Part shown: in pieces, positions 21,693-36,468 of the stretch
Numbering within the stretch: the stretch's first letter is position 1
Layout of the letters: each line of letters starts with the position of its first letter
Assembly (NCBI GenBank): GCA_964597205.1
Contig: CAZQXM010000003.1
Span: forward strand, 1 to 36,998
DNA length: 36,998 bases
Direction of reading: 5' to 3'
Origin: an uncultured Gammaproteobacteria bacterium
Lineage (GTDB): Bacteria; Cyanobacteriota; Vampirovibrionia; LMEP-6097
Notes under the pieces: generated by a model
The model's database searches: none
Told to the model about the DNA's origin: nothing
What the model saw: only the letters and a program-made list of their open reading frames with translations
Translations under genes and position numbers: made by a program

Positions 21693-22406
21693 ATGACACC
21701 ACACACACAAACTAGACAAGCGGCTATCGCCCTGAGTCCGGTGCAGTCTACTGTTCAAATCACTAAAGAATTGAACATGGCAGGCTACCACAAAATCGAC
21801 AGAGTAGATTATCAAGAAGCGCTAATCCAGATCGTGGAAGTAAACAAACCACAGATCGCTATCGTTTCTAGCGAACTTCCAGGTCGCAGATCTATAGTTG
21901 AAATGATGAACAAGATAGCTGAGCTATCCCCATCTACAAGAGTTATCTACATTTCTAAAGCAATGGGCAACAAAGAAGATATCGATATCTTCTTAACTAA
22001 GAACATGAGTGCTTGGTTGCTTAGCGAAAGATCAGAGCGTACTATGTCATTCGCTATCGAAGCGGCTGAAGCAGGTCAACTCTTCATCGATTTCGCTATT
22101 AGCCAAAATATCAGAGAACAAATCAGTGGCAAACAATCATTGCTAACTGATTCATGCTCAGATTATGGTCACCTAGAATTGCTCACTGAAAGAGAAGCTG
22201 AAGTGCTGAAACTTCTTTGTGAAGGTTCAAACTACAAAACTGTAGCTAAAGCATTATTCATCTCAGAATCTACAGTGAAAACTCACATCAATAACATTTT
22301 CACTAAATTGCAAGTTAATGATAGAACTCAAGCAGTTCTATACGCACTAAAGCATGACCTAGATGGTCTGATGACTGCGACAATGACTAGCAACACTAGA
22401 GCGTAA
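21693..22406 (+). CDS. LuxR/NarL-family transcriptional regulator with a degenerate (pseudo-)receiver domain
   Basis: 237 aa, RBS AGGAG 6 nt upstream. C-terminal LTEREAEVLKLLCEGSNYKTVAKALFISESTVKTHINNIFTKLQVNDRTQAV is a GerE/LuxR HTH. The N-terminal REC-like fold lacks the acidic pocket, the phospho-Asp (IAIVSSELPG) and the Lys (AWLLSE). Confidence 0.8.
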   Translation: MTPHTQTRQAAIALSPVQSTVQITKELNMAGYHKIDRVDYQEALIQIVEVNKPQIAIVSSELPGRRSIVEMMNKIAELSPSTRVIYISKAMGNKEDIDIFLTKNMSAWLLSERSERTMSFAIEAAEAGQLFIDFAISQNIREQISGKQSLLTDSCSDYGHLELLTEREAEVLKLLCEGSNYKTVAKALFISESTVKTHINNIFTKLQVNDRTQAVLYALKHDLDGLMTATMTSNTRA

Positions 22407-22884: not shown

Positions 22885-23168
22885 TAATTGAACGCTTATC
22901 TCAATATAATAAATCACAAGGTGAGGTTCTCGCAAAAGATTATCAAGAATAATCCGTATTACAATCTTATCTATTCACAATTATGCACTCGAATAAAGCT
23001 CAAAAGTTAAGATGAAAATATTCTTATCAGAATTATAAAAATAAATTGAAATATTTATAATTTATTTGCTATTATCACCGTTCGGGGAAGAAGTAAATAA
23101 TTTCTTAAGAATGTGCCAAAATCTGTTTAACTGGGCCACATCCTCAGAAATTTAACTTCGGGGGCAAA

Positions 23169-24188
23169 ATGATACGAAAAAATAGAATAGTAGTACTCTA
23201 CTGTCTTTTGTTGGGTTTATCTCAGCAAGCCGGACTGGCAGAGACGGCAAGTCGAGGGGACGAGCCGCCTCAACTGATGTTGGAGTTTATAGATGATGCT
23301 CTTTCACCACCTTCAAGTGTGGTGATTGGTCGCGACGTTGCTAAAGCAAAAGATATTGCTGGCGTGACGTTAAGTCCTGCCGTAGTTGAAACGAAACATC
23401 AACTGCAAGCAGAGGAGCACGAGCTCTTACTAGAGAGTACTACTCATTCCTATTCGGCGAATGTCGAAGAACTTATTAACAGTATTAATGATGCTGAACT
23501 TAAAAAGCAATTAATCGCCAAAGCTTTTGGTGAAAGCAGTCGTAAACAATTAGATTCCGCTCAGCTACTTAGTGTTGCTGACGCGGCTCTTAGCCTAGGA
23601 CTTAAAGATCAAGCCTTAACAGCTTATCGCAAAGCTGTAGAGTTAGACCCCAATAGTCTTAGTGCTCATCATGCTCTAGCTAAAGCAAGCGCTGATACTA
23701 ATGAGCGCGCTTATAGTTTTCTTAAGAGTGTAAGTACTGAAGCGCTTACAAGTATTGCTGACACTTGGTTTGAGCTGAAAGGAGCTAATGCTACTACTAT
23801 AGCTGCCGCGATGATACCTTATCAGTTCGCGATTCTTAAAGAACCTAATAATCCTCATTTGCGCTATCAATTTGCACGCAGACTTGAGCTAGCTGGTCTT
23901 AGTTACTATTCACTCTCAACTAAACGCTATCTAGAATCAGCGGTGCTTGCTAAACAAAAATTCTTAGCTGGTGATAAAAGCGTAGAATTTTTACTCAGAG
24001 ATTCTATAGAGTCATTAATTAGGACTCTGGCTATTCAAGGTGATTTTGATAACGCCACCAAGTATTGTCATAGTTATATTAGTCTTGGCTACGATCGTTT
24101 CAGTGCTGGCGATTCGGTGCGTGGTATTTTGCGCAAGATGCAGTCTCGGCGTAATCCTTTTCGCATAGTTTTGGAGGCAAAAGCATGA
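23169..24188 (+). CDS. secreted TPR-repeat protein, first gene of the Tad-like operon (possible TadD analogue)
   Basis: 339 aa. Signal peptide MIRKNRIVVLYCLLLGLSQQAGLA. TPR-like helices (LGLKDQALTAYRKAVELDPNSLSAHHALAKA). No canonical lipobox. Its stop overlaps the next ATG (ATGA). Confidence 0.65.
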   Translation: MIRKNRIVVLYCLLLGLSQQAGLAETASRGDEPPQLMLEFIDDALSPPSSVVIGRDVAKAKDIAGVTLSPAVVETKHQLQAEEHELLLESTTHSYSANVEELINSINDAELKKQLIAKAFGESSRKQLDSAQLLSVADAALSLGLKDQALTAYRKAVELDPNSLSAHHALAKASADTNERAYSFLKSVSTEALTSIADTWFELKGANATTIAAAMIPYQFAILKEPNNPHLRYQFARRLELAGLSYYSLSTKRYLESAVLAKQKFLAGDKSVEFLLRDSIESLIRTLAIQGDFDNATKYCHSYISLGYDRFSAGDSVRGILRKMQSRRNPFRIVLEAKA

Positions 24189-25246
24189 AATTAGTTCTTG
24201 TAATGATTTTGTGCATATTGCCTTGCTGGGCTTTTGATGCTGATGATTATATTTCTAAGCTTTATAAGCCTATGCCTGCAGAGCTTCAAGCTTTGGAAAC
24301 TAGAGTCTTTGATCAAGCCTCTTACCAACGCGAGATTAGTCCTTGGCTTAACGACCTAGAGTTCAAGCTTAGTCGAGCAGGGCTCTCTAATATTGATGCT
24401 AGTTTTTTACTATTAATAGATAAGCAAGGTCGCATAGTTAATCTTGAACTTGATGATGCTCAAGTGGAGCCAGCAGCTTTGCGTGATTTCATTTCTAAAC
24501 TTGCTAGCTTGGAGTTTGAACCTAGCCCATTGGTGAATACACGACTACTGCTTGATGCTAAGACTTTAACTATTAGTCGTAATGAGAAGCTTGAAGCTCA
24601 CAGAGATACATTAATGGCAGACTTCGATTTACTCTCTAAGCATAATTTAGCACTAAATATTAGTGGGAAAAGCAACCTAACAAGCGACGCTAATAATCTA
24701 AGTCTTAAATCGAATCATACTTATGAAGCAACTTTAATTAGCCCAGAGTTTTTCTCAGCGGCTAGAGTTGGTGACACTATTAATTTCGAACTAGAATCTC
24801 AGCAGTATGTTGGCAGAGTAATAGATACTGGCAGAGAAATTATTATTGCAACTGATGCCCTATTAATTGCCAATGAAATTCAAGCTGATACCCTTCAATA
24901 CTGGCGTTTAGAGCAACGCAATGATAGTGGGACTTGGGATTCTATGATAGCTGGCGCTACTAGTGCTGGTCTGGGATTGGGGTTAGCCAGTCAAGGTCTA
25001 GGTACTGGGATTTTTGCTGGATTAGCGGCGCTTGCTACTAGGGTGCAAGATGCCGATATTAGTCTTAATCTTGGGGATAAGTTTTCTTTACGTAAGTTGG
25101 ATGTAAATGATTTAAGTGGCTCGTTGCCAAATCGTCCAGAACAAGGCTTGCGAGTCCGAGGCAGCGGAGTTGACTCATCTGTCAATGAGCATGCCGAGGA
25201 TGAGCGTAACGCAGTTATGGGCGATTTGGCAATGAGAGCCCTATAG
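24185..25246 (+). CDS. hypothetical secreted protein (TonB-C-like N-domain, C-terminal glycine-zipper segment)
   Basis: 353 aa with a signal peptide (MKLVLVMILCILPCWAF). FLLLIDKQGRIVNLELDDAQVEPAALRDFISKLASLEFEP resembles a TonB C-terminal fold. GATSAGLGLGLASQGLGTGIFAGLAALA is a glycine zipper. Confidence 0.55.
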   Translation: MKLVLVMILCILPCWAFDADDYISKLYKPMPAELQALETRVFDQASYQREISPWLNDLEFKLSRAGLSNIDASFLLLIDKQGRIVNLELDDAQVEPAALRDFISKLASLEFEPSPLVNTRLLLDAKTLTISRNEKLEAHRDTLMADFDLLSKHNLALNISGKSNLTSDANNLSLKSNHTYEATLISPEFFSAARVGDTINFELESQQYVGRVIDTGREIIIATDALLIANEIQADTLQYWRLEQRNDSGTWDSMIAGATSAGLGLGLASQGLGTGIFAGLAALATRVQDADISLNLGDKFSLRKLDVNDLSGSLPNRPEQGLRVRGSGVDSSVNEHAEDERNAVMGDLAMRAL

Positions 25247-25253
25247 GAGGAAT

Positions 25254-25394
25254 ATGCAAGCAATAAGTCAGATGGTAATACTAACGGCTCTAGTAGCACT
25301 TCTCGCTACTACAGTTGAGCAATCGATAGTGGCTAATGTCGAAAAACAAGCTACTAATACAGCTACGGCTGTTGCTAATAAAATTTTTAGTTAG
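25254..25394 (+). CDS. small Flp-like pilin candidate 1 (46 aa; not in the supplied ORF track)
   Basis: AGGAGG RBS at 25245-25250, 3 nt before the ATG. Hand translation: MQAISQMVILTALVALLATTVEQSIVANVEKQATNTATAVANKIFS, a single N-terminal hydrophobic helix plus a short Thr/Ala/Asn tail, sitting directly upstream of cpaB as Flp genes do. Confidence 0.5.
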   Translation: MQAISQMVILTALVALLATTVEQSIVANVEKQATNTATAVANKIFS

Positions 25395-25433
25395 CTTAGT
25401 TTAACTAATGGAGAGGAAAAAGGAGGAAAATAA

Positions 25434-25592
25434 ATGAAGGAAGTACTAATCTACGGAGCGCTAGTAGCGGCAGTGATGGGAGCGGCTATCCCACTTATCA
25501 CTAACTTTACTAGCACCGCTACGACTCAAGGTACAGCGATGAATACTGCGCTGCAAACCAAGTCGCAACAATTACTTACAGCAATAGGATAA
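25434..25592 (+). CDS. small Flp-like pilin candidate 2 (52 aa; not in the supplied ORF track)
   Basis: Strong RBS GGAGAGGAAAAAGGAGGAAAATAA-ATG. Hand translation: MKEVLIYGALVAAVMGAAIPLITNFTSTATTQGTAMNTALQTKSQQLLTAIG. LIYGALVAAV aligns with the IEYGLIVALIAV core of Flp pilins. Confidence 0.55.
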   Translation: MKEVLIYGALVAAVMGAAIPLITNFTSTATTQGTAMNTALQTKSQQLLTAIG

Positions 25593-25598
25593 TAATTT

Positions 25599-26438
25599 AT
25601 GAATTATGCCAATCATGGTCGGGGAGCCGCTTACAGCCGCTCGCTCTTGACTGTCACGTCTAAATACCGTCCTGTTCTTTTAGTGGTGCTGATAGTTCTC
25701 ATAATACTAGGCACTGCTGCTGCGATGGCAAGTTACTTACACTTGAAATCTAAGGTACGCGAATTAAGCGCACTAGAGCCAGTGAAGTTGCTAGCTGTAG
25801 CTAAGGAGCTTGAAGTGGGAGATGTGATTAGTGAAGATACTTTGGTGCCGATGTTTCTTTATAGACATGAATATGAACTAGCAAAAGAATCGTATGTGCC
25901 GGAAGCTAGCAAGCATCAGTTAATAGGTAGAGTGGTCAAGGTGCCGTTACTTGCTCGCAGTTTCATTCGCCAAGAGCATTTGGCTGAAATTGGTTCCCTG
26001 CCCGGATTGGTTAATTTATTAGATAGAGATCATTCGCTTCTAGATATCAATGTGCCACAACAAGGTTTCAATGTTTTTATTAGACCGGATGACAAGGTTG
26101 ATCTTTATGAAGTGAAAGATGATCACACTGAATTGATCGCAGTGCAAGTTAAAGTCATATTAGTAGACTCGCAGCCATTGGGTAGAGCTCCTTTAAAAGT
26201 AACTGTCGATCCACGTATGGAGCGGCAGCTAACACTAGCAGTGCCAGATGCAGTATTGCAGCGAGCACTGCGTGCTAAGCAAACGCATACATTGATGGCA
26301 ACTTATGGACATGAAGCTGCTAAGCCAGTCTATAGATCAAACCCAATAGCCAAGAAATTACCTAACAAGCCGATGCAGGAACTATTCGAGACCCTAGTTT
26401 TTATTAAGGGTGAAGAGAAAGAGGTTTTAAATAAATGA
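25599..26438 (+). CDS. cpaB: Flp pilus assembly protein CpaB/RcpC family
   Basis: 279 aa. N-terminal TM anchor, SAF-like segment (LAVAKELEVGDVISEDTL), and a C-terminal HSLLDINVPQQGFNVFIRPDDKVDLY matching the RcpC/CpaB pattern (rAvsv...G.i.PGd.VDv). Confidence 0.75.
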   Translation: MNYANHGRGAAYSRSLLTVTSKYRPVLLVVLIVLIILGTAAAMASYLHLKSKVRELSALEPVKLLAVAKELEVGDVISEDTLVPMFLYRHEYELAKESYVPEASKHQLIGRVVKVPLLARSFIRQEHLAEIGSLPGLVNLLDRDHSLLDINVPQQGFNVFIRPDDKVDLYEVKDDHTELIAVQVKVILVDSQPLGRAPLKVTVDPRMERQLTLAVPDAVLQRALRAKQTHTLMATYGHEAAKPVYRSNPIAKKLPNKPMQELFETLVFIKGEEKEVLNK

Positions 26439-27751
26439 AAGAGATACTTTTAGTTTCGGATATTGAAATTGATTCACAGTTAGAATTGACGAAAGCTGAA
26501 CTGGCTCATTATGCTTACAGCTTCTCTTTTCCAGTGCCAATTAATAGAGCGCTAGATGAGTTGCGTTCGTATTCACAAATCCTGATTAACGCTAGCGGCT
26601 CTAAACTAGCAGCACTTGAATTGGTGAAGGCTATTCGCCAGCAGCATAAAACTGCTATTAAGGTTTTTGTTTATCTGCCGGAGTCCAGTGCTAGTGAAGG
26701 TAGTAAATTCGGCTTATTAGGAGCAGAAGTTGAAGATGAGTTAAGTGTTCAACGTATCATCGACAAATTACCACAAGCTGATAAACGCGGTTACAACATT
26801 GATGAAGAGATTATAGCTATCTATGGTATGTATGGTGGTGCGGGGGCATCATTACTTAGTATTTTAATTTCTTATGTCTTGGGTAACTTAGGGCTTACTT
26901 CAGTGTTAATGGAACCTAGTCCCGCAGCTACTTCTATTCGTGACGCATTAGTGTTAGAGACTAAGCCAGCTTTATTAACCAGAGATAGAAATAAAGAAAT
27001 AGATTTAAGTAAAGATATGGACTGGTTCTCTGGTTTCGTTTCTCGTAGTCATTTTTTACGTGAAACTTTTTATTTACATTTGTTCAACTCTGCAGCAGCT
27101 CGAGATATTTTCAGTCTCAAGGCTGCTAGTTTCACTGAAAAAATATCTGAACAACTACTATCTATCTCTGACCGTAGTAAATATTATCAGCATAGCGCTG
27201 ATGAGCTAGAAGCTGCTTTAAGAGCTACTCGTAGCAGTTTGCAATTATTAGGACAAGAATTGAGTGGCAAATCATGCTCGCTATTTGATGAGGTTTTACA
27301 ACCTGGATCTCAGTTAGCTAAGTATTTCGTGGTGGATTTAGGCTCTGATATTAGCAGTCCGCTTAACAGACAGTTCTTACATTTTACTAAGCATCTAATA
27401 TTATTAATACGCGACAACTGTAGCTCTGATCTTAAAACAAATTTGCAGTCACAGGTCAAGTATCTTGAAGATACTTATCATCTTAATATCATTCCGGTGC
27501 TAGCTCCTGGACATCATAGATATAAAGATTATTATCGTTTTAGTGCTTCAGAATGGCAGTCATTACTTGGACTTGAGCCGCTAGTCTTTCCTTATCAACC
27601 AGATTTAGTTTCAGGATTTTTATTAGATCACGAGGACTTGGATAATAATTCAGCTTTGATCTTATTTGTTAAAAATTTGCTTGAAAGGATTGGTATTGTA
27701 GAAACTACTAGTCGTAAGTCGTTAATGGAATTTTTGGTGAGGAATGCTTAG
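26435..27751 (+). CDS. TadZ/CpaE-like pilus localisation protein (atypical receiver plus ParA/MinD-like domain with degenerate Walker A)
   Basis: 438 aa, positioned between cpaB and tadA. N-terminal REC-like fold without an obvious phospho-Asp. The P-loop position reads IIAIYGMYGGAGASLL instead of the deviant Walker A KGGxGK[ST]T. Confidence 0.6.
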   Translation: MKEILLVSDIEIDSQLELTKAELAHYAYSFSFPVPINRALDELRSYSQILINASGSKLAALELVKAIRQQHKTAIKVFVYLPESSASEGSKFGLLGAEVEDELSVQRIIDKLPQADKRGYNIDEEIIAIYGMYGGAGASLLSILISYVLGNLGLTSVLMEPSPAATSIRDALVLETKPALLTRDRNKEIDLSKDMDWFSGFVSRSHFLRETFYLHLFNSAAARDIFSLKAASFTEKISEQLLSISDRSKYYQHSADELEAALRATRSSLQLLGQELSGKSCSLFDEVLQPGSQLAKYFVVDLGSDISSPLNRQFLHFTKHLILLIRDNCSSDLKTNLQSQVKYLEDTYHLNIIPVLAPGHHRYKDYYRFSASEWQSLLGLEPLVFPYQPDLVSGFLLDHEDLDNNSALILFVKNLLERIGIVETTSRKSLMEFLVRNA

Positions 27752-29251
27752 ATGTTAATTGCTGCTGATAATTTAATTGATTTTAAATCCTCACCGGTGC
27801 AGCAAGGTAGGTTAGAGCGAGCACTAGCCTATCGAGCTGCGATTTATCCAGTGCTTGAAGCGATACTTGATCCACAGAATAAATCTCTTGAAGCTCAATC
27901 TTTGCAGCGTGATTTTGAACGTTCTGCTTCCTTGGCTGCTAAGCCAAGTTCAGCCAAGGAGCTTTATGCGATTAAACGCCAGAAATCAATAGTCTTGGCA
28001 GCTTTTATAGATAAAGTGATGCTCTCGCCATCACGGTTTGGACTAAGTTTCGCTCAGCCACCATCACAACAGGATAAACTTTGGACTAAAACGCTACTTA
28101 TATATGACCTGCTTTATTATGGTCCGATTACAGTGCTGGCTTTATCTAAGCTCTTAGCGATAGATGAGGATTTGCGTTTGAATCCTATGGCTCAGTTGAT
28201 GCAAGATTTAGCGCATAGTTATCAGGTTAACGAAATTAGAGTCAATCAAGCCTCTGATATATTTTTTGAATCAGGGTCTAAGATTTTTACTTGGCCAATA
28301 CCTTTTTTAAGTGATAGTCATTTGCAGCTAGTTATCGACAGAATGATTAGTGAATCTAATCTACTTTATAATGCTGCCATTAGTCTTAATAGTTCTCAAC
28401 CGATAGCTGATTTCGAGCATCCTTGCGGTTATATTCGTGGTGCAGCAATGATAGCTCCAGCTGCCGAGCATCCATTCTTAACTTTAAGACTGCATCCAGA
28501 GTCTCCTTACTCGCTTGACGATCTTATGGCTCTTAATATGTTCGATAGCCAGATTATGGAATTTCTGAAAGCCTGTCAGCTGGCTGGAACTACTATTGTG
28601 ATCGCTGGTACTATGGGCTCTGGTAAAACCACTCTCTTAAGCGCTTTAGCTGAGCACTGGCCAGTAGAGGGGCGCAAAGCAACTATCGAAGATACGCCCG
28701 AATTGAGACCGCGCATCGCTGATCTGGTGAAAATGCGTACTATTGAGCGTGATCAATTTAAAAATATAGATGTAGCTTGTTTAACTAAAGCTTGCAAGCG
28801 CCATAGTGTACGCTATGTAGTTCTCTCAGAAGCTAGAGATTATTCTGCTTGGGAGATTTTACAGCTATCGCAAGCGATATTAGGTTCACTCATGACTTTT
28901 CACTATACTTTGCGCGGTACTCGATATTTGGTGGATCAAGCTCTTAGTGCTTTGGTAGCTTTATGTAAGCAGCACCCACTAGCTCCTAGTGGTGAAGATC
29001 TTAAACATCAAATCGCTAGTATGGTGCAGATACTTATACTAATAGAACAAGATCCCATCGATAGCATACGACGCATAGTGAGAATTTATCATGTGCTTGG
29101 TTATGATGAACTTAATGGCGGGCATTTTAAGGCTCTAGAACTCTTTAGTTATCAGTCTTCTGTTAACAATTTTAGACTAGAGAACTCATCTAAAGAATTT
29201 GAAGAATATTTAAAATCAAAAGGAATAAATTATGTTTTTGCTCGGTCTTAG
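27752..29251 (+). CDS. tadA: TadA/CpaF-family secretion ATPase (type II/IV secretion NTPase)
   Basis: 499 aa. IVIAGTMGSGKTTLLSAL (Walker A), IEDTPEL (Asp box), VRYVVLSEARD (Walker B), GSLMTFH (His box). Confidence 0.9.
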   Translation: MLIAADNLIDFKSSPVQQGRLERALAYRAAIYPVLEAILDPQNKSLEAQSLQRDFERSASLAAKPSSAKELYAIKRQKSIVLAAFIDKVMLSPSRFGLSFAQPPSQQDKLWTKTLLIYDLLYYGPITVLALSKLLAIDEDLRLNPMAQLMQDLAHSYQVNEIRVNQASDIFFESGSKIFTWPIPFLSDSHLQLVIDRMISESNLLYNAAISLNSSQPIADFEHPCGYIRGAAMIAPAAEHPFLTLRLHPESPYSLDDLMALNMFDSQIMEFLKACQLAGTTIVIAGTMGSGKTTLLSALAEHWPVEGRKATIEDTPELRPRIADLVKMRTIERDQFKNIDVACLTKACKRHSVRYVVLSEARDYSAWEILQLSQAILGSLMTFHYTLRGTRYLVDQALSALVALCKQHPLAPSGEDLKHQIASMVQILILIEQDPIDSIRRIVRIYHVLGYDELNGGHFKALELFSYQSSVNNFRLENSSKEFEEYLKSKGINYVFARS

Positions 29252-30158
29252 TATCGTAGTTCTAGCTTTAGTTGCCTTGTTACTAGCCTTATATTTAAGT
29301 CCTAACCTAAGACGGCAACATCCTTTGCTTAGGGTAGGTGCTAGATTCTTTGCTACCAATGAATTAATGCTTTGCGCTAATCACATAAAATCTTTTTTAA
29401 TCTCCGAGCGCTTTAATTTCCTTGATTGCCATCTTGGTAAAAACACTTTACTAAAATTAGCAGTTCCTTCGTTACTGTTTTTGGCTCTTGGGCTTTTTGT
29501 TTTAGGACCGATTTTAGTTGGACCTAGTCTTGGTCTGGTCTTGGGTTTATTAATTGCCTTAGCGTATATTTCTAGGTTAATTCTGCATTGCTATCTGGTT
29601 TTTAGAGACGGTTTATTGGCGCAAATAGAGAGGATATTACTTAGTATCCGCAATAATCTTAGTGCTGGTATGACTCTTGATTACGCGGTGACAGACGTTG
29701 CTATAGCTAGCAAGGATGAGCCAGTCTCAAGTGATTTGCGTGGATTTCTGCAGCGTGCTGAAGTTAATTTTTTAGAAAGTTTTCCGTCTTGGCTTGATAA
29801 TTTGCGCCATAAATTTCATTTACGTTCTTTAGCCAAATCTTCTCAATTATTAGGGCTTGAATTACATTACACCAATAATCAAGAAGAAGCTTTCCTCGAT
29901 GCGGTTAATTCTGTGCATAACGCGCTTAGTAGTAATAAAAAACAACGCTCAACTTTAACCATCACTTTATTCACTCTAGATTTTATTGTTTTGGCTTTTT
30001 TCGCCGTTTTATTTTATGTTATTCCATCATTTACCCTTGGTTCTGATTTGAGTTGGTGGAATTCTGCTGAGAGACCGTGGGTAATATTTCAATCTGGCTT
30101 AGTAATTTGGGGTGCTTATTTGATCACCATAGCTCTAGCCTTAAGGAGACAAGAGTGA
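29232..30158 (+). CDS. tadB: TadB-like inner-membrane platform protein (T2SSF-type domain)
   Basis: 308 aa. Polytopic, with a cytoplasmic helical domain (ILLSIRNNLSAGMTLDYAVTDVA) typical of GspF/TadB. Position immediately after tadA. Confidence 0.65.
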   Translation: MFLLGLSIVVLALVALLLALYLSPNLRRQHPLLRVGARFFATNELMLCANHIKSFLISERFNFLDCHLGKNTLLKLAVPSLLFLALGLFVLGPILVGPSLGLVLGLLIALAYISRLILHCYLVFRDGLLAQIERILLSIRNNLSAGMTLDYAVTDVAIASKDEPVSSDLRGFLQRAEVNFLESFPSWLDNLRHKFHLRSLAKSSQLLGLELHYTNNQEEAFLDAVNSVHNALSSNKKQRSTLTITLFTLDFIVLAFFAVLFYVIPSFTLGSDLSWWNSAERPWVIFQSGLVIWGAYLITIALALRRQE

Positions 30159-31015
30159 TTGCTATATTAGTTGTGGGCTTTGCCTCCGTTATTTTACTTC
30201 TACTGCTTAATCGTGCTTATCTCAGCACTGAATTGAGTTTGCAACGCTTACCAATACTGGAGCGTAGGACAACTATTCATTATGCTGAGCCTAAATTCTT
30301 GGAGCGATTTAATCCCTTGATTAGATCTTTATTACCAGAGACTCTACTACAGACACTTGAATCGGAATATCTATATCTAGGACGCAAGCTTGAATTGCTT
30401 TATGAATTAATCGTCCAAATCTTCTTAGTCTTCGCTTCTTTATTCTTTGCCTACTTATTAAATCACAATAGTTATTTTTTAATTCTAGCCTTGTTGATCC
30501 CAGCGCTATTGATTATTGAACTTAAATGCTCGCTTGCCAGTTATCACCGTGAGTTAGAAGCTGATAGCGCACATCTATTTGCTTGCGCTAGAGTCTTGCT
30601 GATTAACACCGAAACCCCAATGATCTTGGCTTTAAGAATTATAGTTAGCACTTGGCCTAATGCTAATTCCGCCACTGTGCATGAGCTTAATAAAATTATT
30701 AACAAGATAGATAAACTAGGGGCTAAAGAAGCACTTAGTAATTGGCAAGTGAAATCTGAGAAGTTTCGTGATTTCTTGTCATTCTTAGTTTCAGTTGCTG
30801 AGGGCTCTAGTAAAAGAGCGCTCAGAGCAGCTCTCGATAAATTAATAGAAAGCTCTCGCCAAGAAGAAAAAGACCGTCTACAAGAGCGGGCTGATAATTT
30901 ACAGCTCTATCTTATGGGTCCAGTAGTAGCGATGCTGTTAGTTGTTATGTATCCAATGGCAGCAGCGATAAATTTTATGATGCAAAACAGTCTATTAAAA
31001 GGGGATGGAATATGA
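30155..31015 (+). CDS. tadC: TadC-like inner-membrane platform protein (T2SSF-type domain)
   Basis: The start is reassigned to the GTG at 30155 (AAGGAG RBS 6 nt upstream, GTGA overlap with the tadB stop) rather than the track start 30077. N-terminal TM VIAILVVGFASVILLLLL, helical middle domain, C-terminal TM. Confidence 0.65.
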   Translation: MIAILVVGFASVILLLLLNRAYLSTELSLQRLPILERRTTIHYAEPKFLERFNPLIRSLLPETLLQTLESEYLYLGRKLELLYELIVQIFLVFASLFFAYLLNHNSYFLILALLIPALLIIELKCSLASYHRELEADSAHLFACARVLLINTETPMILALRIIVSTWPNANSATVHELNKIINKIDKLGAKEALSNWQVKSEKFRDFLSFLVSVAEGSSKRALRAALDKLIESSRQEEKDRLQERADNLQLYLMGPVVAMLLVVMYPMAAAINFMMQNSLLKGDGI

Positions 31016-32760
31016 AAAGGACAAGCATGGGAAAACTTATGATAGTGGGATTATTATTGCTACTAATGCTAGATGTGAGCGCAGAGCCAATTATTAATTT
31101 TGCCGCTGATCAAGCCTTGAAGATTCGCAAGGTTTTTACTGTTGGGCAAGTAGAAATACTAGATTTCGCCAAACCAGTATCACTAGCGCATTATGGTGCT
31201 AATGAAGAGTCGCTGAATTATGTCGAATTGGATAAATTAGAGCCAGAAAAAGATGGCTATCGTAAATTTATAGTTAAAGCCAAGAAACCGGGCTATGGTG
31301 AAATGACTTTTAGATCTGGTACTGATCTAATTAAGATAGAAATAGTAGTGCAGAATGATTATCAACTATTAGAATCTCAACTAAACGAACTCTTCGGTAT
31401 CCATGATGCTAACCTGGACCCAGAGGATAAAATCCAAGTTATTCCAGCAGCTCATATTGGTAATGTCTCTAGTGAAGCTAGGGTAGACGCTCACATATAT
31501 CTTAAAGGACAAGTAGCTAGTCCTAAAGATGCGATGCTTGCTGTTGCTTTTGCCGCTAATGCTGTTGGTGATACTGGTGTTAAGATCTTTTCTAATCCGG
31601 GCGGTCAACTAAGAGCTAAAGACTTAGATAGTGAGCAAGCCGAGAAAACTCAACAAGCTGCTCCTAGTAGTTCGAATCCAGCCACCGCTACTTTCGCGGA
31701 ATTTTATGAATCTACTAATAAACTTATAGACACTAATAATTTACATAGAGATTTAGTACTCGCTTCTAACAACGAAAGGGTAATTTCTTTTATTCATATT
31801 AAAGAACCAGATAGATTTTCTGTTAGGGTGCGTTTCTTAGAGGTTGATGCGCGTCATCTTAATGAATTTTCTAGCAGTTTGTTTGCTACCAATTCTGGTG
31901 GTGATGTTCAAGGTGCTGTTGGTTCAGATCTACTCGGCGTGCCCGATGTAAGTAGTGCCCCAGCTAGCTCAGCTTCGGTACTGACAAATCTACTAAGGAC
32001 TTCACTTAGCCCAGCGGCTATTACTAGTCCTGGTTTGGCGAATGCTGGTAATCTAGTCGCTGGCATTTTTAACGTGGTGGATAATCTGAATGTCAGCGCT
32101 TCTATAAGTGACTTACTGCAAGAAGGTGTACTTAGGGTGGTTAATGAGTTCTCGCTTATTACTCACTCCGGTGAGCGCATTTCTCTAGGCAAGGGTACTA
32201 GGTTCCCATTACCGCAAATCAATAATACTTTAGGTGGCACCCAACTGAGCGTGCAATATATTCCTATAGGTTTTAAGGGTGAGCTTAAAGTTACCGATCT
32301 AGAGGATGGCATGATAGATGTGCAATTGGCTAGCAGGCTTACAGCTGCCGAGTCTTCTAACCTTACTTTTATAGAAGGAGTGGCTGTGCCTATATTTAAA
32401 GAAGAATTCGTTAATAGTGGAGCGATGCTAAGAAGCGGACAAGAAGTAGTGCTCAATAGCTTCTTTACTGAGTTTGAGACCATAGCTAAATCCTCTTCGC
32501 CATTGGGTCGTATATTGCCATTATTCGGTAAGTCGCGCAAAGCTGAGAAAAAACGTAGCATGTTATTCGTCGCGCTTAAGGTAGAACAGATATCACCTAA
32601 TCTCAATTCACCAGACTTCAGTTTGCCGCATGTCGATTTCAGCCAGAAGAAAAATATCTACAATAATTATTTAGGTGATCTCAAGGTGAATAATAAGAAG
32701 GAAGAGGCTGCGCTGGATCCTTTAAGTACTGGTGCTACTTTGCCGGGGGTAGAGATTTAA
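31012..32760 (+). CDS. cpaC: outer-membrane secretin, CpaC/RcpA type
   Basis: 582 aa. Signal peptide, pilus-formation N-domain (IKIEIVV), BON/secretin-N-like LKGQVASPKDAMLAVAFAANA. C-terminal secretin domain (ITHSGERISLGKGTRFP...VQYIPIGFKGELKV...SGAMLRSGQEVVLNSFF...SSPLGRILPLFGKSR...MLFVALKVEQI). Confidence 0.8.
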   Translation: MKRTSMGKLMIVGLLLLLMLDVSAEPIINFAADQALKIRKVFTVGQVEILDFAKPVSLAHYGANEESLNYVELDKLEPEKDGYRKFIVKAKKPGYGEMTFRSGTDLIKIEIVVQNDYQLLESQLNELFGIHDANLDPEDKIQVIPAAHIGNVSSEARVDAHIYLKGQVASPKDAMLAVAFAANAVGDTGVKIFSNPGGQLRAKDLDSEQAEKTQQAAPSSSNPATATFAEFYESTNKLIDTNNLHRDLVLASNNERVISFIHIKEPDRFSVRVRFLEVDARHLNEFSSSLFATNSGGDVQGAVGSDLLGVPDVSSAPASSASVLTNLLRTSLSPAAITSPGLANAGNLVAGIFNVVDNLNVSASISDLLQEGVLRVVNEFSLITHSGERISLGKGTRFPLPQINNTLGGTQLSVQYIPIGFKGELKVTDLEDGMIDVQLASRLTAAESSNLTFIEGVAVPIFKEEFVNSGAMLRSGQEVVLNSFFTEFETIAKSSSPLGRILPLFGKSRKAEKKRSMLFVALKVEQISPNLNSPDFSLPHVDFSQKKNIYNNYLGDLKVNNKKEEAALDPLSTGATLPGVEI

Positions 32761-32933
32761 TGTTTTGGGCAGCACTATTCTCAACGGCGATAGCATTTAG
32801 TCTAATTTGGGCTTTTATTACTCAATCTTGGATGAGTGCTGCAAGTTTTATTCAAGCCGAAACTAGTCAAATCCAAACTTATAAACCCAGTGCTAAAACC
32901 AATCAAAATTTAACGGAGCTATTAGTGTCATGA
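32760..32933 (+). CDS. small N-terminally hydrophobic protein (57 aa; possible minor/pseudopilin; not in the ORF track)
   Basis: The ATG overlaps the secretin stop (TAATG) and its stop overlaps the next ATG (ATGA). Hand translation: MFWAALFSTAIAFSLIWAFITQSWMSAASFIQAETSQIQTYKPSAKTNQNLTELLVS. Confidence 0.4.
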   Translation: MFWAALFSTAIAFSLIWAFITQSWMSAASFIQAETSQIQTYKPSAKTNQNLTELLVS

Positions 32934-33292
32934 ATCCTAACTATATATCATTAGCTTTTTTAATCGTGATGATTCCTTTAGTCATAACAGGGCAGTTAAT
33001 GCCAGCATTTAATTTGCATATAGCTAGTGATAGAGAAGCTTTGGTCCGCCAGCAAACAGAGATAGAGCTAGCTAAGAGCCTTCGTCTTAGTAAACCCTTA
33101 AATCAAGTGCAAGATGATTTAGTTAAACTAAAATTGCCGGGTCTTGATATTAAATCTGCATTAGTGAGCATTGATGGTGAATATGTTTTAGCTGAACTTG
33201 CTTATCAATATTCTGGTTTACTAGTCACTAAATTTTTCACACAACAGAATCAAGTTAAAACAATAAAAGTAGCGACAGTGAGAGTAGATTAA
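32930..33292 (+). CDS. hypothetical protein with an N-terminal TM helix (possible TadE/TadF-like pseudopilin)
   Basis: 120 aa. MNPNYISLAFLIVMIPLVITGQL followed by a beta-rich soluble part. The position matches tadE/tadF in Tad loci. There is no strong motif match. Confidence 0.45.
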   Translation: MNPNYISLAFLIVMIPLVITGQLMPAFNLHIASDREALVRQQTEIELAKSLRLSKPLNQVQDDLVKLKLPGLDIKSALVSIDGEYVLAELAYQYSGLLVTKFFTQQNQVKTIKVATVRVD

Positions 33293-33294
33293 TT

Positions 33295-34083
33295 ATGAAA
33301 AACCATACAGCCATAGTAGTAGAAGATCAACCAGTAATTTGGGATTATGCGAATTACTGTCTTAAGGATACTTGTCATATCTTAGATTTTTGTACTAATA
33401 CCGCTGAAGCAGAGGAAGCTTTCTTTCAATATAGACCTGATTTGGTTTGGTTAGATTGTTATTTAGGCGAAATCTCTGATTCTAGTAATGGACCTAAGAA
33501 TAGTGGGCTAGCTTTGGCTGCTTGGATTAAGTGTCATAGACCTAAAACCAAAATATTTCTTTTTACTGCTTCTCATGATCCGACCATCCTTAAAGCTGCT
33601 CGTGATATTGGTATTGAAGGAATCGCTCTAGGCGGCAAGTTTGTGCGTGATCGGCATATTATAGTTTCTGGGATTAGAGCAGTGCTTGAGGGTAAACAAT
33701 GGATCAGTCCGCATTTAGTGGAGAATTTTGAATTGGATGATTTAGCTAGAGTTACTGTTTTTGAGTTTGCGGTTTTCTGTTCTATACTGCTTGGTAAATC
33801 TACCGCGCAAATAGCAGAGGAGCTTGATACTACACGTAAACGGGTTAATAATGCGATCTATAGAGTTAGAGAGAAACTAGAAATAGATGTCTCAGCCTCT
33901 AAAGATTATGCTTTAGATCTGATTCGCAATAAAGTCTTAGAGAAGTTGCAGTTTAATGATAGCTATGTAGTCTCTGATATTATGGCAATTAATACTGCTA
34001 TCTATGAATTTCTAAGCCCAGTATTGGCTAAGCTGAAATCAGGCATGCTTAGTAGGGTCTATCTTGATCCAGTCTTGGTTTAA
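33295..34083 (+). CDS. response regulator, canonical receiver plus LuxR/sigma-70-region-4-like HTH and a C-terminal extension
   Basis: 262 aa. IVVEDQP, DLVWLDCYL (phospho-Asp), IFLFTAS, GIALGGK form the complete REC catalytic set. HTH is STAQIAEELDTTRKRVNNAIYRVREKL. Last gene of the Tad-like operon. Confidence 0.75.
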   Translation: MKNHTAIVVEDQPVIWDYANYCLKDTCHILDFCTNTAEAEEAFFQYRPDLVWLDCYLGEISDSSNGPKNSGLALAAWIKCHRPKTKIFLFTASHDPTILKAARDIGIEGIALGGKFVRDRHIIVSGIRAVLEGKQWISPHLVENFELDDLARVTVFEFAVFCSILLGKSTAQIAEELDTTRKRVNNAIYRVREKLEIDVSASKDYALDLIRNKVLEKLQFNDSYVVSDIMAINTAIYEFLSPVLAKLKSGMLSRVYLDPVLV

Positions 34084-36282
34084 TTAACCGGACATGCTCG
34101 GGATTAAATGTGCAGCATCTGCGGTTTTGACAGCTGGTGCTAGCCTGTTTGCTGGCATTGGATTATTGAGCGGCATATTCATAGCTGCTTGCATTTGTTG
34201 TTGTATAGGATTTTCAGGAGTTTCACTTCTTACGTAGAAGAATTTTTTAATCACTGTAAGCGGTATCGCTATGATCCCGCCTAAACCAGGTATTAAGCCT
34301 CGTATTATAGTCTCAATTCTAGTCAACAAGTTATAAACTTGTTGTTTTCCTTTATCACGCTGACTTAATTCACCAACTGGAACAGAAGTTTTAAAGAGCT
34401 TACCAGTGATCGGATTCAAGATTAGAGTCTTAAGGAATCTTCTAGATACGTCCAATGATGTGATAGTTTTAACGTGGCGTTCTTGACTTTGCGCTTCTTT
34501 TTCTAATCGGTTGAGTAATTCTAGATAGCTTGATTCATGGTGGAACACATTGGCTCCAAGCTCTTTATCATGGATAATGCGATTGAGTGCTTGACCAACA
34601 AATCTAGCAAACGGTATCCAATTGCTATTAAGTAGTTTCTCTTGTAGCTTAACTAATTCATCCATAGCGTTGTAGCTGAAATCACCCTTAGCTAATGCAT
34701 ATTTTTGTCTCTGACCAAAAACCATAGCAATGATTTTTGGTACACGAGTGCTGCAAGCGTAGACCATAAAGCTTGGTAGAGCAAGGAAGGTTGAAGCTAA
34801 GCCTAATCCAATATCAAGGCTCTTCATCAACCAATTACCCTGAGCTTGTATATCTGGGTCACTGATTCTTGGAATCGCTGCTGGTAATAGCATCAATAAG
34901 GATTGTATTGGTCTAGTGATGTGATCAAGCTCTTCAATAATTGTATTTTTATTGATAAAGCCTTTGATCTTGTTTTGAGGGTCTTTTTGTATCTGCTCTA
35001 AGGCTTCTCTTTGCTCTGGCGACATCTCTGCTAATTCTTTTTCAGTTCGTGTTCGTGCTGATAAGGTGATGCGCTCAGTACTTGCATCATAAGGAAGTAT
35101 CGTCCTCATTAGATCTTTTACCAGAGGCATGTTGCAAATTGACTCAGCTCCTGTTATTAACCAAGATTTACAGTTATCAATAGTCCTATTTACAGTTCCT
35201 TCTATCTGTGCGGAAGTTTGATCTAGATCAATTTTTGCAAGCGTTTTAATATTGTACTTATCACCTATTTTCTGTAACACTTCGCGTATCTTGGAAGTAA
35301 AGCCTGTTAAATATTGGCTTACCATTTTTTGTTGTTCCCCTTCACTAAAAATCTTTCTGAATCTAGAGAAAGAACCAAATAATGATGGTATGGCTAATAA
35401 TGAACCTATAACTCCCTGCAATATATGAGAACCATTGATGCCGTAGTGTCCATTTGCCTGAGCCTGGCTCATTCCTGTTGTCCTAGCAAGTTTAAATGAC
35501 ATTAAAGTCTTATAGAAAGCATTAAGATTGGCTGATACTGGCTGAAAAACGTCACCCAATCGAGCTATAAAATTAGCAGCTTTATATTTAATATTGTTAT
35601 TGTTGTAGGTATTTCCCAGTCTGAAAATTGCGGCACTAGCATAACCTGGTATCGACAAAAGAGTACCAAGTAGAGAAGTAAATTTAGCAAGCGGTGGAAA
35701 GAATGCTTCCCAAGCACTAGCAATTTTAGTATTCTCGCCTTCTGGTTTTTTAAGGAAGAAGCTTGAAGCCATATTCTCATAAGAAAATATTAGAGACCCA
35801 ATACTGCCGGCAAGTCTTGGGTCAAGAATATTATTAAGCCAGCCAAGTTTAGGACCAAGAAATTTTTTAAATTCTGGATAACTTTGCTCTATCTTTTCAC
35901 CAAGATTAGTTTTGTTAGGGTTTTCTGGACTTGCTATTTCCTTCCTAGCCAAATCTGAAACTACTGCCCTACCTCTAGTAAGTGGTGTACTAACAGTTCC
36001 TATTACTCTTGAGATGAAAGTAAGAAAATCATGGAAGAGGTCTCTTTGCTGATTATCCGAACCAAATTGAGCAACTTGCTCTGCTTGGTTGGCAAGTATG
36101 CCACCCATCGCCGCTAAACCTAATAAACCTAGAGGAAGAGTTCTTTGGCCAGGAGTTAAAGTTTCCTGTGCAATAGCATTGCTGGCTGCTGCGGGGCCGC
36201 CAGCAAATATGCGCTTGAACCACGGCCGTGGCTCTTGTTGAGCTCCAATGATGCTCATCTTATTTAGCCAGTAATCTGGCAA
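34084..36282 (-). CDS. large hypothetical membrane-associated protein, no recognisable family
   Basis: 732-aa uninterrupted ORF. The track start is TTG at 36282, with an ATG alternative at 36258 (MSIIGAQ...). Several Gly/Ala/Leu-rich hydrophobic segments, helical polar regions, and a Q/N/P/M-rich C-terminal tail. Confidence 0.65.
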   Translation of the reverse strand: MPDYWLNKMSIIGAQQEPRPWFKRIFAGGPAAASNAIAQETLTPGQRTLPLGLLGLAAMGGILANQAEQVAQFGSDNQQRDLFHDFLTFISRVIGTVSTPLTRGRAVVSDLARKEIASPENPNKTNLGEKIEQSYPEFKKFLGPKLGWLNNILDPRLAGSIGSLIFSYENMASSFFLKKPEGENTKIASAWEAFFPPLAKFTSLLGTLLSIPGYASAAIFRLGNTYNNNNIKYKAANFIARLGDVFQPVSANLNAFYKTLMSFKLARTTGMSQAQANGHYGINGSHILQGVIGSLLAIPSLFGSFSRFRKIFSEGEQQKMVSQYLTGFTSKIREVLQKIGDKYNIKTLAKIDLDQTSAQIEGTVNRTIDNCKSWLITGAESICNMPLVKDLMRTILPYDASTERITLSARTRTEKELAEMSPEQREALEQIQKDPQNKIKGFINKNTIIEELDHITRPIQSLLMLLPAAIPRISDPDIQAQGNWLMKSLDIGLGLASTFLALPSFMVYACSTRVPKIIAMVFGQRQKYALAKGDFSYNAMDELVKLQEKLLNSNWIPFARFVGQALNRIIHDKELGANVFHHESSYLELLNRLEKEAQSQERHVKTITSLDVSRRFLKTLILNPITGKLFKTSVPVGELSQRDKGKQQVYNLLTRIETIIRGLIPGLGGIIAIPLTVIKKFFYVRSETPENPIQQQMQAAMNMPLNNPMPANRLAPAVKTADAAHLIPSMSG

Positions 36283-36391: not shown

Positions 36392-36468
36392 TGGTGTGCT
36401 TGGCGGGATTCGAACCCACGACCCCCAGTTCCGGAAACTGGTGCTCTATCCAGCTGAGCTACAAGCAC
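36392..36468 (-). tRNA. tRNA-Arg (anticodon CCG), CCA end encoded
   Basis: Reverse complement: GTGCTTG-TA-GCTC-AGCTGGATA-GAGC-A-CCAGT-TTCCGGA-ACTGG-GGGTC-GTGGG-TTCGAAT-CCCGC-CAAGCAC-A-CCA. This gives a 7-bp acceptor stem, a full cloverleaf, a TTCGAAT T-loop and anticodon loop TT-CCG-GA. Confidence 0.9.

Follow-up and report, generated by a model that had tools for sequence, protein, structure and literature searches.

Can the subunit of a type IV filament be made directly in its mature form, with no leader for a prepilin peptidase to remove? This question was raised by a stretch of 36,998 nucleotides (hereafter the window; GenBank assembly GCA_964597205.1, contig CAZQXM010000003.1, forward strand), which was deposited as DNA of an uncultured Gammaproteobacteria bacterium and is placed by GTDB in the Vampirovibrionia (Cyanobacteriota). 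Two small open reading frames (ORFs), ORF1 and ORF2, lie just upstream of a cpaB-like gene, inside a co-directional gene block (23169-34083) that encodes a Tad-like machine. The prepilin peptidase is counted as a core, ancestral component of type IV filaments, and the subunits are defined by their class III signal peptide (PMC6668835). Our preferred interpretation, held with moderate confidence, is that ORF2 encodes the major filament subunit of a divergent Melainabacteria-type Tad-like pilus and that this subunit is made in mature form. A system built in this way would be independent of prepilin peptidase. The two genes and their ribosome-binding sites are located as follows:

25245..25250, + strand: Shine-Dalgarno sequence AGGAGG of ORF1, from sequence reading.
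25254..25394, + strand: ORF1, a small single-helix protein of 46 amino acids (aa) without a leader (MQxxxQ-hydrophobic-T.EQS...KIF), kept in 8 distinct loci.
25421..25433, + strand: Shine-Dalgarno sequence AGGAGG of ORF2 (25421-25426) and the in-frame TAA (25431-25433) that abuts its ATG, from sequence reading.
25434..25592, + strand: ORF2, 52 aa, the candidate major filament subunit without a leader (MKEVLIYGALVAAV...), from 36 distinct relatives, synteny, substitution pattern and structure prediction.

The first-pass annotation had read two ORFs of 46 and 52 aa upstream of cpaB, each with a strong Shine-Dalgarno sequence, and both were confirmed from the sequence with an AGGAGG motif each. 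The product of ORF1 is MQAISQMVILTALVALLATTVEQSIVANVEKQATNTATAVANKIFS, and an in-frame TGA lies 6 codons upstream of it with no start codon between. The product of ORF2 is MKEVLIYGALVAAVMGAAIPLITNFTSTATTQGTAMNTALQTKSQQLLTAIG. Because the in-frame TAA directly precedes its ATG, no longer ORF2 product is possible in this sequence.

The reality of ORF2 as a gene was evaluated via its relatives. A search of 5.8 billion proteins retrieved nine relatives at 58-94% identity, and only 16 members, all of them small proteins, scored above noise when the ORF2 profile was used in an exhaustive HMMER scan of 1.84 billion cluster representatives. A scan of IMG/VR with this profile found nothing. Related loci were gathered via CpaB-centred scans of species-representative genomes and metagenome contigs, together with contig look-ups, and about 20 of them were distinct. 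The family comprised 36 distinct relatives in total, from approximately 20 Melainabacteria-type loci, so that the search for homologous short ORFs beside cpaB, as suggested in the first-pass annotation, was successful for ORF2. Moreover, the ORF2 homologue was the gene immediately before cpaB in every fetched locus that reached upstream of cpaB, which bears out the proposed placement in the position of flp genes. This position held even where the identity of CpaB fell to 33-40%, and in the deepest branch, with an ATPase of 44% identity, and the gene order of the block was kept throughout the related loci. Synonymous (pS) and non-synonymous (pN) differences were compared among 20 distinct coding sequences. 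Codons 1-14 of ORF2 had a pS of 0.60 and a pN of 0.05 (pN/pS = 0.085), and the pN over codons 26-50 was 0.46. Hence, the ORF2 frame is translated, and its N-terminus is under strong purifying selection. Chance ORFs were rejected as an explanation according to the conservation and the pN/pS values. ORF2 is a real, conserved gene that is universal in this system.

ORF1 had been paired with ORF2 as a second pilin gene. Both genes proved to be genuine and conserved; they are not equivalent, however, as ORF2 is universal whereas ORF1 is a patchy accessory gene, and an hhalign comparison of the two families gave no detectable similarity between them. The 8 loci with ORF1 are the window itself, L029, L030, L005, L002, L033, L034 and L036, and none was found in the other loci. 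Where present, ORF1 always lies between a gene for a protein of 300-356 aa and ORF2. Its pattern is M-Q/G-x-[IL]..., followed by a hydrophobic stretch, T.E(Q/A)(S/T) and a C-terminal (K/R)I(F/Y). Public gene callers had called the ORF2 homologues, and they had called ORF1 in L002 and L030 and not in L029. Neither ORF1 nor ORF2 had a meaningful match in Pfam or NCBIfam.

The start site of ORF2 determines whether a leader is present. In 13 distinct loci, the closest in-frame stop precedes the conserved ATG by 0-21 codons, and in 12 of the 13 no ATG, GTG or TTG intervenes. A purine-rich GGAG-type motif precedes the ATG in most of these loci. The earlier claim that translation starts at the hydrophobic helix is supported by these results. 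Several database entries (P0004, P0030, P0031 and L001) are extended at the N-terminus (MNRVTVQGEER-, MALKSSAGEKREKK- and, in L001, VRRKEKNK-), and these extensions read as translated purine-rich stretches abutting the conserved Met; the stretch in L001 contains a GGAG motif. A longer upstream start with a normal leader, for which the first-pass annotation had also looked, was ruled out by the in-frame stops and the positions of the Shine-Dalgarno sequences. ORF2 has no class III signal peptide, that is, neither a basic leader nor a Gly(-1) cleavage site. Furthermore, the ORFs of the window include none with a G-x4-E-[YF] motif and none with an N-terminus of class III type, and neither a small ORF with this motif nor a class III-type N-terminus was found in the Melainabacteria-type loci checked (up to L020).

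The conservation of ORF2 is concentrated at the N-terminus. Residues 1-14 (MK[ED]vLIYGALVAAV) are almost invariant among the 36 sequences, with counts of M (36), K (35), E or D (35), then V, I or L, followed by L (35), I (35), Y (35), G (34), A (34) and L (36), and there are no insertions or deletions over the first 50 columns. Family members are 46-80 aa long. Residues 4-25 are uncharged and hydrophobic in 34 of the 36, and the C-terminal half is polar and rich in T, N, A, S, Q and G, with G/S/N/T-rich tails of variable length past residue 50. According to the AlphaFold2 model of ORF2, residues 2-51 form one continuous helix with a predicted local distance difference test score (pLDDT) of 91.7. 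The description of each ORF as one hydrophobic helix with a polar tail, of the size of mature Flp, holds. This arrangement of a conserved core helix and a variable exposed end is the pattern of a pilin, and the ORF2 sequences fit it.

The hydrophobic segment may also be read as a Sec signal peptide, in which case ORF2 would be the precursor of a small secreted peptide that is cut by signal peptidase I near residue 29 and is unrelated to filaments. The S-T-A stretch of the window sequence (residues 27-29), which follows the hydrophobic segment, could pass as an A-x-A-like site, but the putative -3 and -1 positions are not conserved among the relatives. Signal peptides are conserved in character and not in sequence, whereas the 22-residue hydrophobic stretch of ORF2 is invariant in sequence; the strict synteny with Tad-like genes is a further point against a secreted peptide. 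This explanation is extremely improbable and was rejected because the cleavage site is unconserved and the hydrophobic region invariant.

The charge of the N-terminus was explored in the same 36 sequences. The side-chain charge of residues 1-3 is zero in all of them. The only member without Lys2 is P0037 (MAQVIIFG...), which also lacks the acidic residue 3, as a single and possibly compensatory event. This co-loss, seen once, fits a neutralising ion pair of Lys2 and the acidic residue 3. The residue equivalent to Glu5 of Flp is Ile in ORF2, which carries its acidic residue at position 3 instead and keeps only Tyr7-Gly8, and ORF1 has neither the Glu nor the Tyr. The earlier observation that Glu5 is replaced and that the Tyr is retained in one copy was correct, the Tyr-Gly pair being present in ORF2 only.

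The relationship of ORF2 to Flp was examined against the Flp/Fap type IVc pilins, such as Caulobacter crescentus PilA and Aggregatibacter Flp-1. In the C. crescentus Tad pilin, 45 residues form one continuous helix, with Tyr6 and Gly7 in the tightly packed core and Glu5 making no contact with neighbouring subunits (PMC10710030). The near-invariant Tyr7-Gly8 of ORF2 aligns with this Tyr6-Gly7, which therefore places the initiator Met of ORF2 at the Gly(-1) position of a prepilin. The alignment is plausible from the sequences and is without statistical support. As with ORF2, the Flp gene lies ahead of cpaB/rcpC in a tad-type operon. Mature Flp has 40-60 aa, compared with 46-80 aa in the ORF2 family, and both consist of an alpha-1-type helix only, which for ORF2 is a prediction. 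A hydrophobic N-terminal half, a polar C-terminal half, a Tyr-Gly pair near the N-terminus, a conserved N-terminus and a variable C-terminus are common to both. Unlike Flp, ORF2 has no leader, no Gly(-1), no Glu5 and no Thr2, and it carries an acidic residue 3 beside Lys2. It also differs in being unrecognised by the Flp_Fap hidden Markov model (HMM) and by profile-profile comparison, and in having a locus without tadV.

The missing prepilin peptidase of the first-pass annotation was confirmed and extended to other loci. No Peptidase_A24 match was found in the 37-kb window, where the polytopic membrane ORFs are two platform proteins and MlaE only. The flanks of 21 related loci, covered for up to 10 kb, contained no peptidase candidate, and the polytopic ORFs there are TadB/C proteins. 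The exception is a 111-aa polytopic ORF on the opposite strand in L010, which is presumed to be spurious. Peptidase genes of the tadV/pilD type can lie apart from the locus and be shared between systems, and the MSH loci are an example without a prepilin peptidase of their own (PMC6668835). Since such a gene can be encoded elsewhere, its absence from the locus is ordinary and by itself weak evidence; a subunit without the signal is not ordinary.

A peptidase encoded elsewhere is central to another explanation, which had been offered earlier, namely that ORF2 is a prepilin with an eight-residue leader (MKEVLIYG) cut after Gly8, for example by the PilD of a type IVa system. The presence of Gly8 in 34 of the 36 sequences is consistent with such cleavage, as is the frequent location of peptidase genes apart from the systems that share them (PMC6668835). 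However, residue 8 is replaced by Ala in one relative and by Thr in a second, and residues 1-8, which are hydrophobic and not basic, are better conserved than any other part of ORF2. Only approximately 17 uncharged residues (9-25) would stay as a membrane anchor after the cut, and Tyr7-Gly8 matches the Tyr6-Gly7 core of mature Flp. Cleavage after Gly8 is accordingly considered very unlikely.

The machinery encoded around ORF1 and ORF2 is distributed in the block as follows:

23169..24188, + strand: TPR protein, possibly TadD-like, which opens the conserved block (Pfam TPR matches; position kept across loci).
24185..25246, + strand: 353-aa protein with an N-terminal hydrophobic, signal-peptide-like segment (no family match; 300-356 aa in all loci).
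25599..26438, + strand: CpaB/RcpC-like periplasmic protein (TIGR03177, E = 1e-13, below the curated cutoff; Pfam RcpC, E = 0.002).
26435..27751, + strand: TadZ/CpaE-like protein, assigned by its position between cpaB and the ATPase gene (weak TIGR03815 match, E = 3e-4).
27752..29251, + strand: TadA/CpaF-type secretion ATPase (Pfam T2SSE, E = 6e-18; NCBIfam scores below the equivalog cutoffs).
29232..30158, + strand: TadB-like polytopic platform protein (5 predicted transmembrane segments; conserved position; no Pfam match).
30077..31015, + strand: TadC-like platform protein of the T2SSF family (Pfam T2SSF, 27.4 bits against a cutoff of 25.2).
31012..32760, + strand: outer-membrane secretin (Pfam Secretin, 30.2 bits against a cutoff of 27.5).
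32760..32933, + strand: conserved 57-aa protein with a hydrophobic helix from residue 2 (synteny).
32930..33292, + strand: conserved 120-aa protein with an N-terminal hydrophobic helix and no leader (synteny).
33295..34083, + strand: response regulator with a LuxR-type helix-turn-helix, the conserved last gene of the block (Pfam Response_reg and GerE; in all loci).

Homologues of the CpaB-like protein carry PF16976/PF08666. The relatives of the ATPase range from 100% down to 40% identity, followed by a gap to canonical CpaF at no more than 31%, and the nearest named relatives are CpaF (JGI names). By ATPase identity, the machine is Tad-like and has a clade of its own. It shares with the canonical Tad/Cpa system (RcpC-RcpA-RcpB-TadZ-TadA-TadB-TadC-TadD-TadE-TadF-TadG and TadV) the CpaB-like protein, a TadZ-like protein by position, the CpaF/TadA-type ATPase, two platform-like proteins (one passing the T2SSF cutoff, the other polytopic and syntenic), the secretin and the TPR protein. 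Unlike in the canonical system, the secretin gene follows tadC and not rcpC, no TadE, TadF or TadG domains were detected and there is no TadV in the locus. PF07811 and PF13400 had no match in the window, nor in the family of the 120-aa protein. The proteins of 300-356, 57-66 and 109-125 aa and the LuxR-type response regulator are extra conserved genes here. The canonical loci used for comparison, L021 and L022, have genes for TadE, TadG, SAF/CpaB, a ParA-type TadZ and T2SSF. In L022 there is also a normal Flp, whose leader has 11 residues (MLSIQKEKGQG/LVEYALIL...).

Two other groups of filaments were compared with ORF2. In archaeal type IV pilins and archaellins, whose class III signal peptides are cut by PibD, FlaK or EppA, the alpha-1 helix is continuous and Glu5 is not required, as in ORF2; unlike ORF2, they have a short basic leader that ends in Gly or Ala, need a peptidase and usually carry a globular C-terminal domain. 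Tad systems are thought to be derived from archaeal Epd-like pili (PMC6668835, PMC10710030). In MSH pili, the peptidase gene is absent from the locus, as here, whereas the pilins have a normal class III signal peptide and the peptidase is borrowed from another system (PMC6668835).

In the mechanism that we propose, ORF2 would insert into the inner membrane in an N-in/C-out orientation via residues 4-25. Its cytoplasmic end would be Met-Lys-Glu only, with a net side-chain charge of zero, in which K2 is paired with E/D3. With zero charge at the N-terminus and no basic leader as an anchor, the TadA/TadBC motor could therefore lift the subunit from the bilayer without leader removal. The subunits would polymerise into a helix-only filament with the invariant first 14 residues, including Tyr7-Gly8, as the core and the variable Thr/Asn/Ser/Gly-rich C-termini as the surface. 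The filament would leave through the CpaB ring and the secretin, and the prepilin peptidase would be dispensable for this machine. ORF1 may encode a second, lineage-restricted small subunit built in the same way, either a minor or alternative subunit or a membrane accessory.

Several points weigh against ORF2 as a leaderless filament subunit. A class III signal peptide is present in every type IV filament subunit characterised so far (PMC6668835), and the prior is against a leaderless subunit for this reason. The filament, its expression and the true N-terminus of ORF2 are predictions from the sequence. Moreover, the term Flp-like, as applied in the first-pass annotation, held for design and position and failed for sequence, where homology to Flp is not demonstrable. 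The suggested comparison with Flp_Fap gave no match: none of 30 ORF2 members matched PF04964 at E <= 10, nor did any match another pilin family. An hhalign comparison of the ORF2 and ORF1 families with seven canonical Flp sequences, six from fetched loci and the seventh being C. crescentus PilA, gave probabilities of 2-7%. A tblastn search of plasmids with C. crescentus PilA returned only 3 matches and was of no use for building an Flp profile. The sequence search of the PDB with the ORF2 profile retrieved no pilin and only chance matches, such as PsbM at E = 0.26. In Foldseek, the ORF2 model had zero matches in the PDB, as expected for a lone helix, and the predicted lone helix is itself a weak structural argument. 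A peptidase or canonical flp gene could lie elsewhere in the genome, beyond the window and the flanks. Furthermore, cpaB starts 6 nt after the ORF2 stop, with no attenuator to raise pilin expression over that of the machinery; the terminator scan found no terminator after ORF2.

These points lead to a further alternative, in which ORF2, ORF1 or both are small bitopic accessories of the inner membrane that bind the TadB/C platform or CpaB and do not polymerise, and the true subunit is encoded elsewhere or by one of the two genes after the secretin gene. The lack of homology to any pilin and the lack of a class III signal peptide both favour an accessory. The extreme conservation of the transmembrane N-terminus also fits a tight protein-protein contact in the membrane, and two more conserved genes with N-terminal hydrophobic helices are at hand. 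However, the C-terminal halves of ORF2 are variable, and their G/S/N/T-rich tails of differing length are typical of a filament surface and not of a machine subunit. A filament subunit accords with the place of ORF2 in front of the machinery genes, its strong Shine-Dalgarno sequence and a size like that of mature Flp, and the loci that were checked yielded no alternative pilin candidate bearing a class III signal. An accessory role is considered unlikely, with some weight left to it, and the filament subunit is retained as the preferred interpretation of ORF2.

The two genes after the secretin gene are present in all related loci. Their products, of 57-66 and 109-125 aa, have a hydrophobic helix from residue 2-6, no leader and no Pfam match, the latter including 12 of 12 members of the 120-aa family. 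The AlphaFold2 single-sequence model of the 120-aa protein was unreliable (pLDDT 44). These proteins may be minor subunits or a minor pilin, membrane accessories or PilN/O-like components. We regard it as evenly balanced whether the same principle extends to a whole lineage of Tad-like machines without class III signal peptide and peptidase, in which the major subunit, and perhaps also ORF1, the 57-aa protein and the 120-aa protein as the remaining small subunits, would be translated in mature form with charge-neutral N-terminal helices and polymerised directly by the ATPase/platform motor. Such a lineage would have dropped one component of the core set of ATPase, platform, pilin and peptidase, and it would allow the purpose of leader removal to be tested in nature.

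Full-text searches of the literature found no description of leaderless Flp or other leaderless pilins, nor of Tad/Flp pili in Melainabacteria or Vampirovibrionia. If the preferred interpretation of ORF2 is true, leader removal would be mechanistically unnecessary for the extraction and polymerisation of subunits. The neutrality of the N-terminal charge would be indicated as the real requirement, provided for by the conserved Lys2-Glu3 pair, whose residues were lost together in one relative. Such loci would be missed or misclassified by pilin finders and by HMM-based system detectors that seek G-x4-E. In addition, a minimal subunit of 52 residues would be on offer for filament engineering, and a surface organelle would be added to poorly known non-photosynthetic relatives of cyanobacteria.

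The taxonomic titles of the loci were also inspected. Three are titled Candidatus Melainabacteria, and several metagenome-assembled genomes (MAGs) from third-party annotation (TPA) are titled 'uncultured Gammaproteobacteria' and have the same locus. The latter are L005-L008, L010, L015 and L016, TPA assemblies from SRP150892 and SRP302895 that share the locus of the Candidatus Melainabacteria MAGs. The 'uncultured Gammaproteobacteria' labels of these MAGs are probably wrong.

Some further features of the machinery genes were observed. In the TadZ-like protein (26435-27751), the only Walker-A-like stretch (IYGMYGGAGASLLS) is degenerate and Pfam gave no ParA/AAA_31 match, and the protein differs in this respect from the TadZ of the canonical loci L021 and L022. 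The listed GTG start of the TadC-like gene overlaps the preceding gene by 82 nt; because the relatives have only 286-290 aa, the true start is probably further downstream. The 353-aa protein is kept directly upstream of the small genes in every locus and has a Gly/Ala-rich hydrophobic patch near its C-terminus, after which the relatives show a short 'LSFNL.KGDK'-type motif.

The regulation and surroundings of the operon were examined last. The counts of the promoter and terminator scan were not above the shuffled expectation; the highest-ranking -35/-10 pair, at 23046-23075, precedes the TPR gene. Rfam gave no RNA family in the region. LuxR-type response regulators lie on both sides of the operon, at 21693-22406 and 33295-34083, and the downstream regulator belongs to the conserved block in all loci, which suggests a dedicated regulation of the operon. 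The rest of the window is ordinary chromosome, with genes for a BamA-like protein, NDH subunits, PolA, SecA, AlaRS, FtsH, acetyl-CoA synthetase and tRNA-Arg. A 732-aa ORF without a Pfam match (34084-36282, - strand) neighbours the operon here and also in L029, L030 and L002. The tRNA-Arg gene (anticodon CCG; 36392-36468, - strand) adjoins an ORF for the C-terminal part of DnaJ that is cut off at the end of the window.

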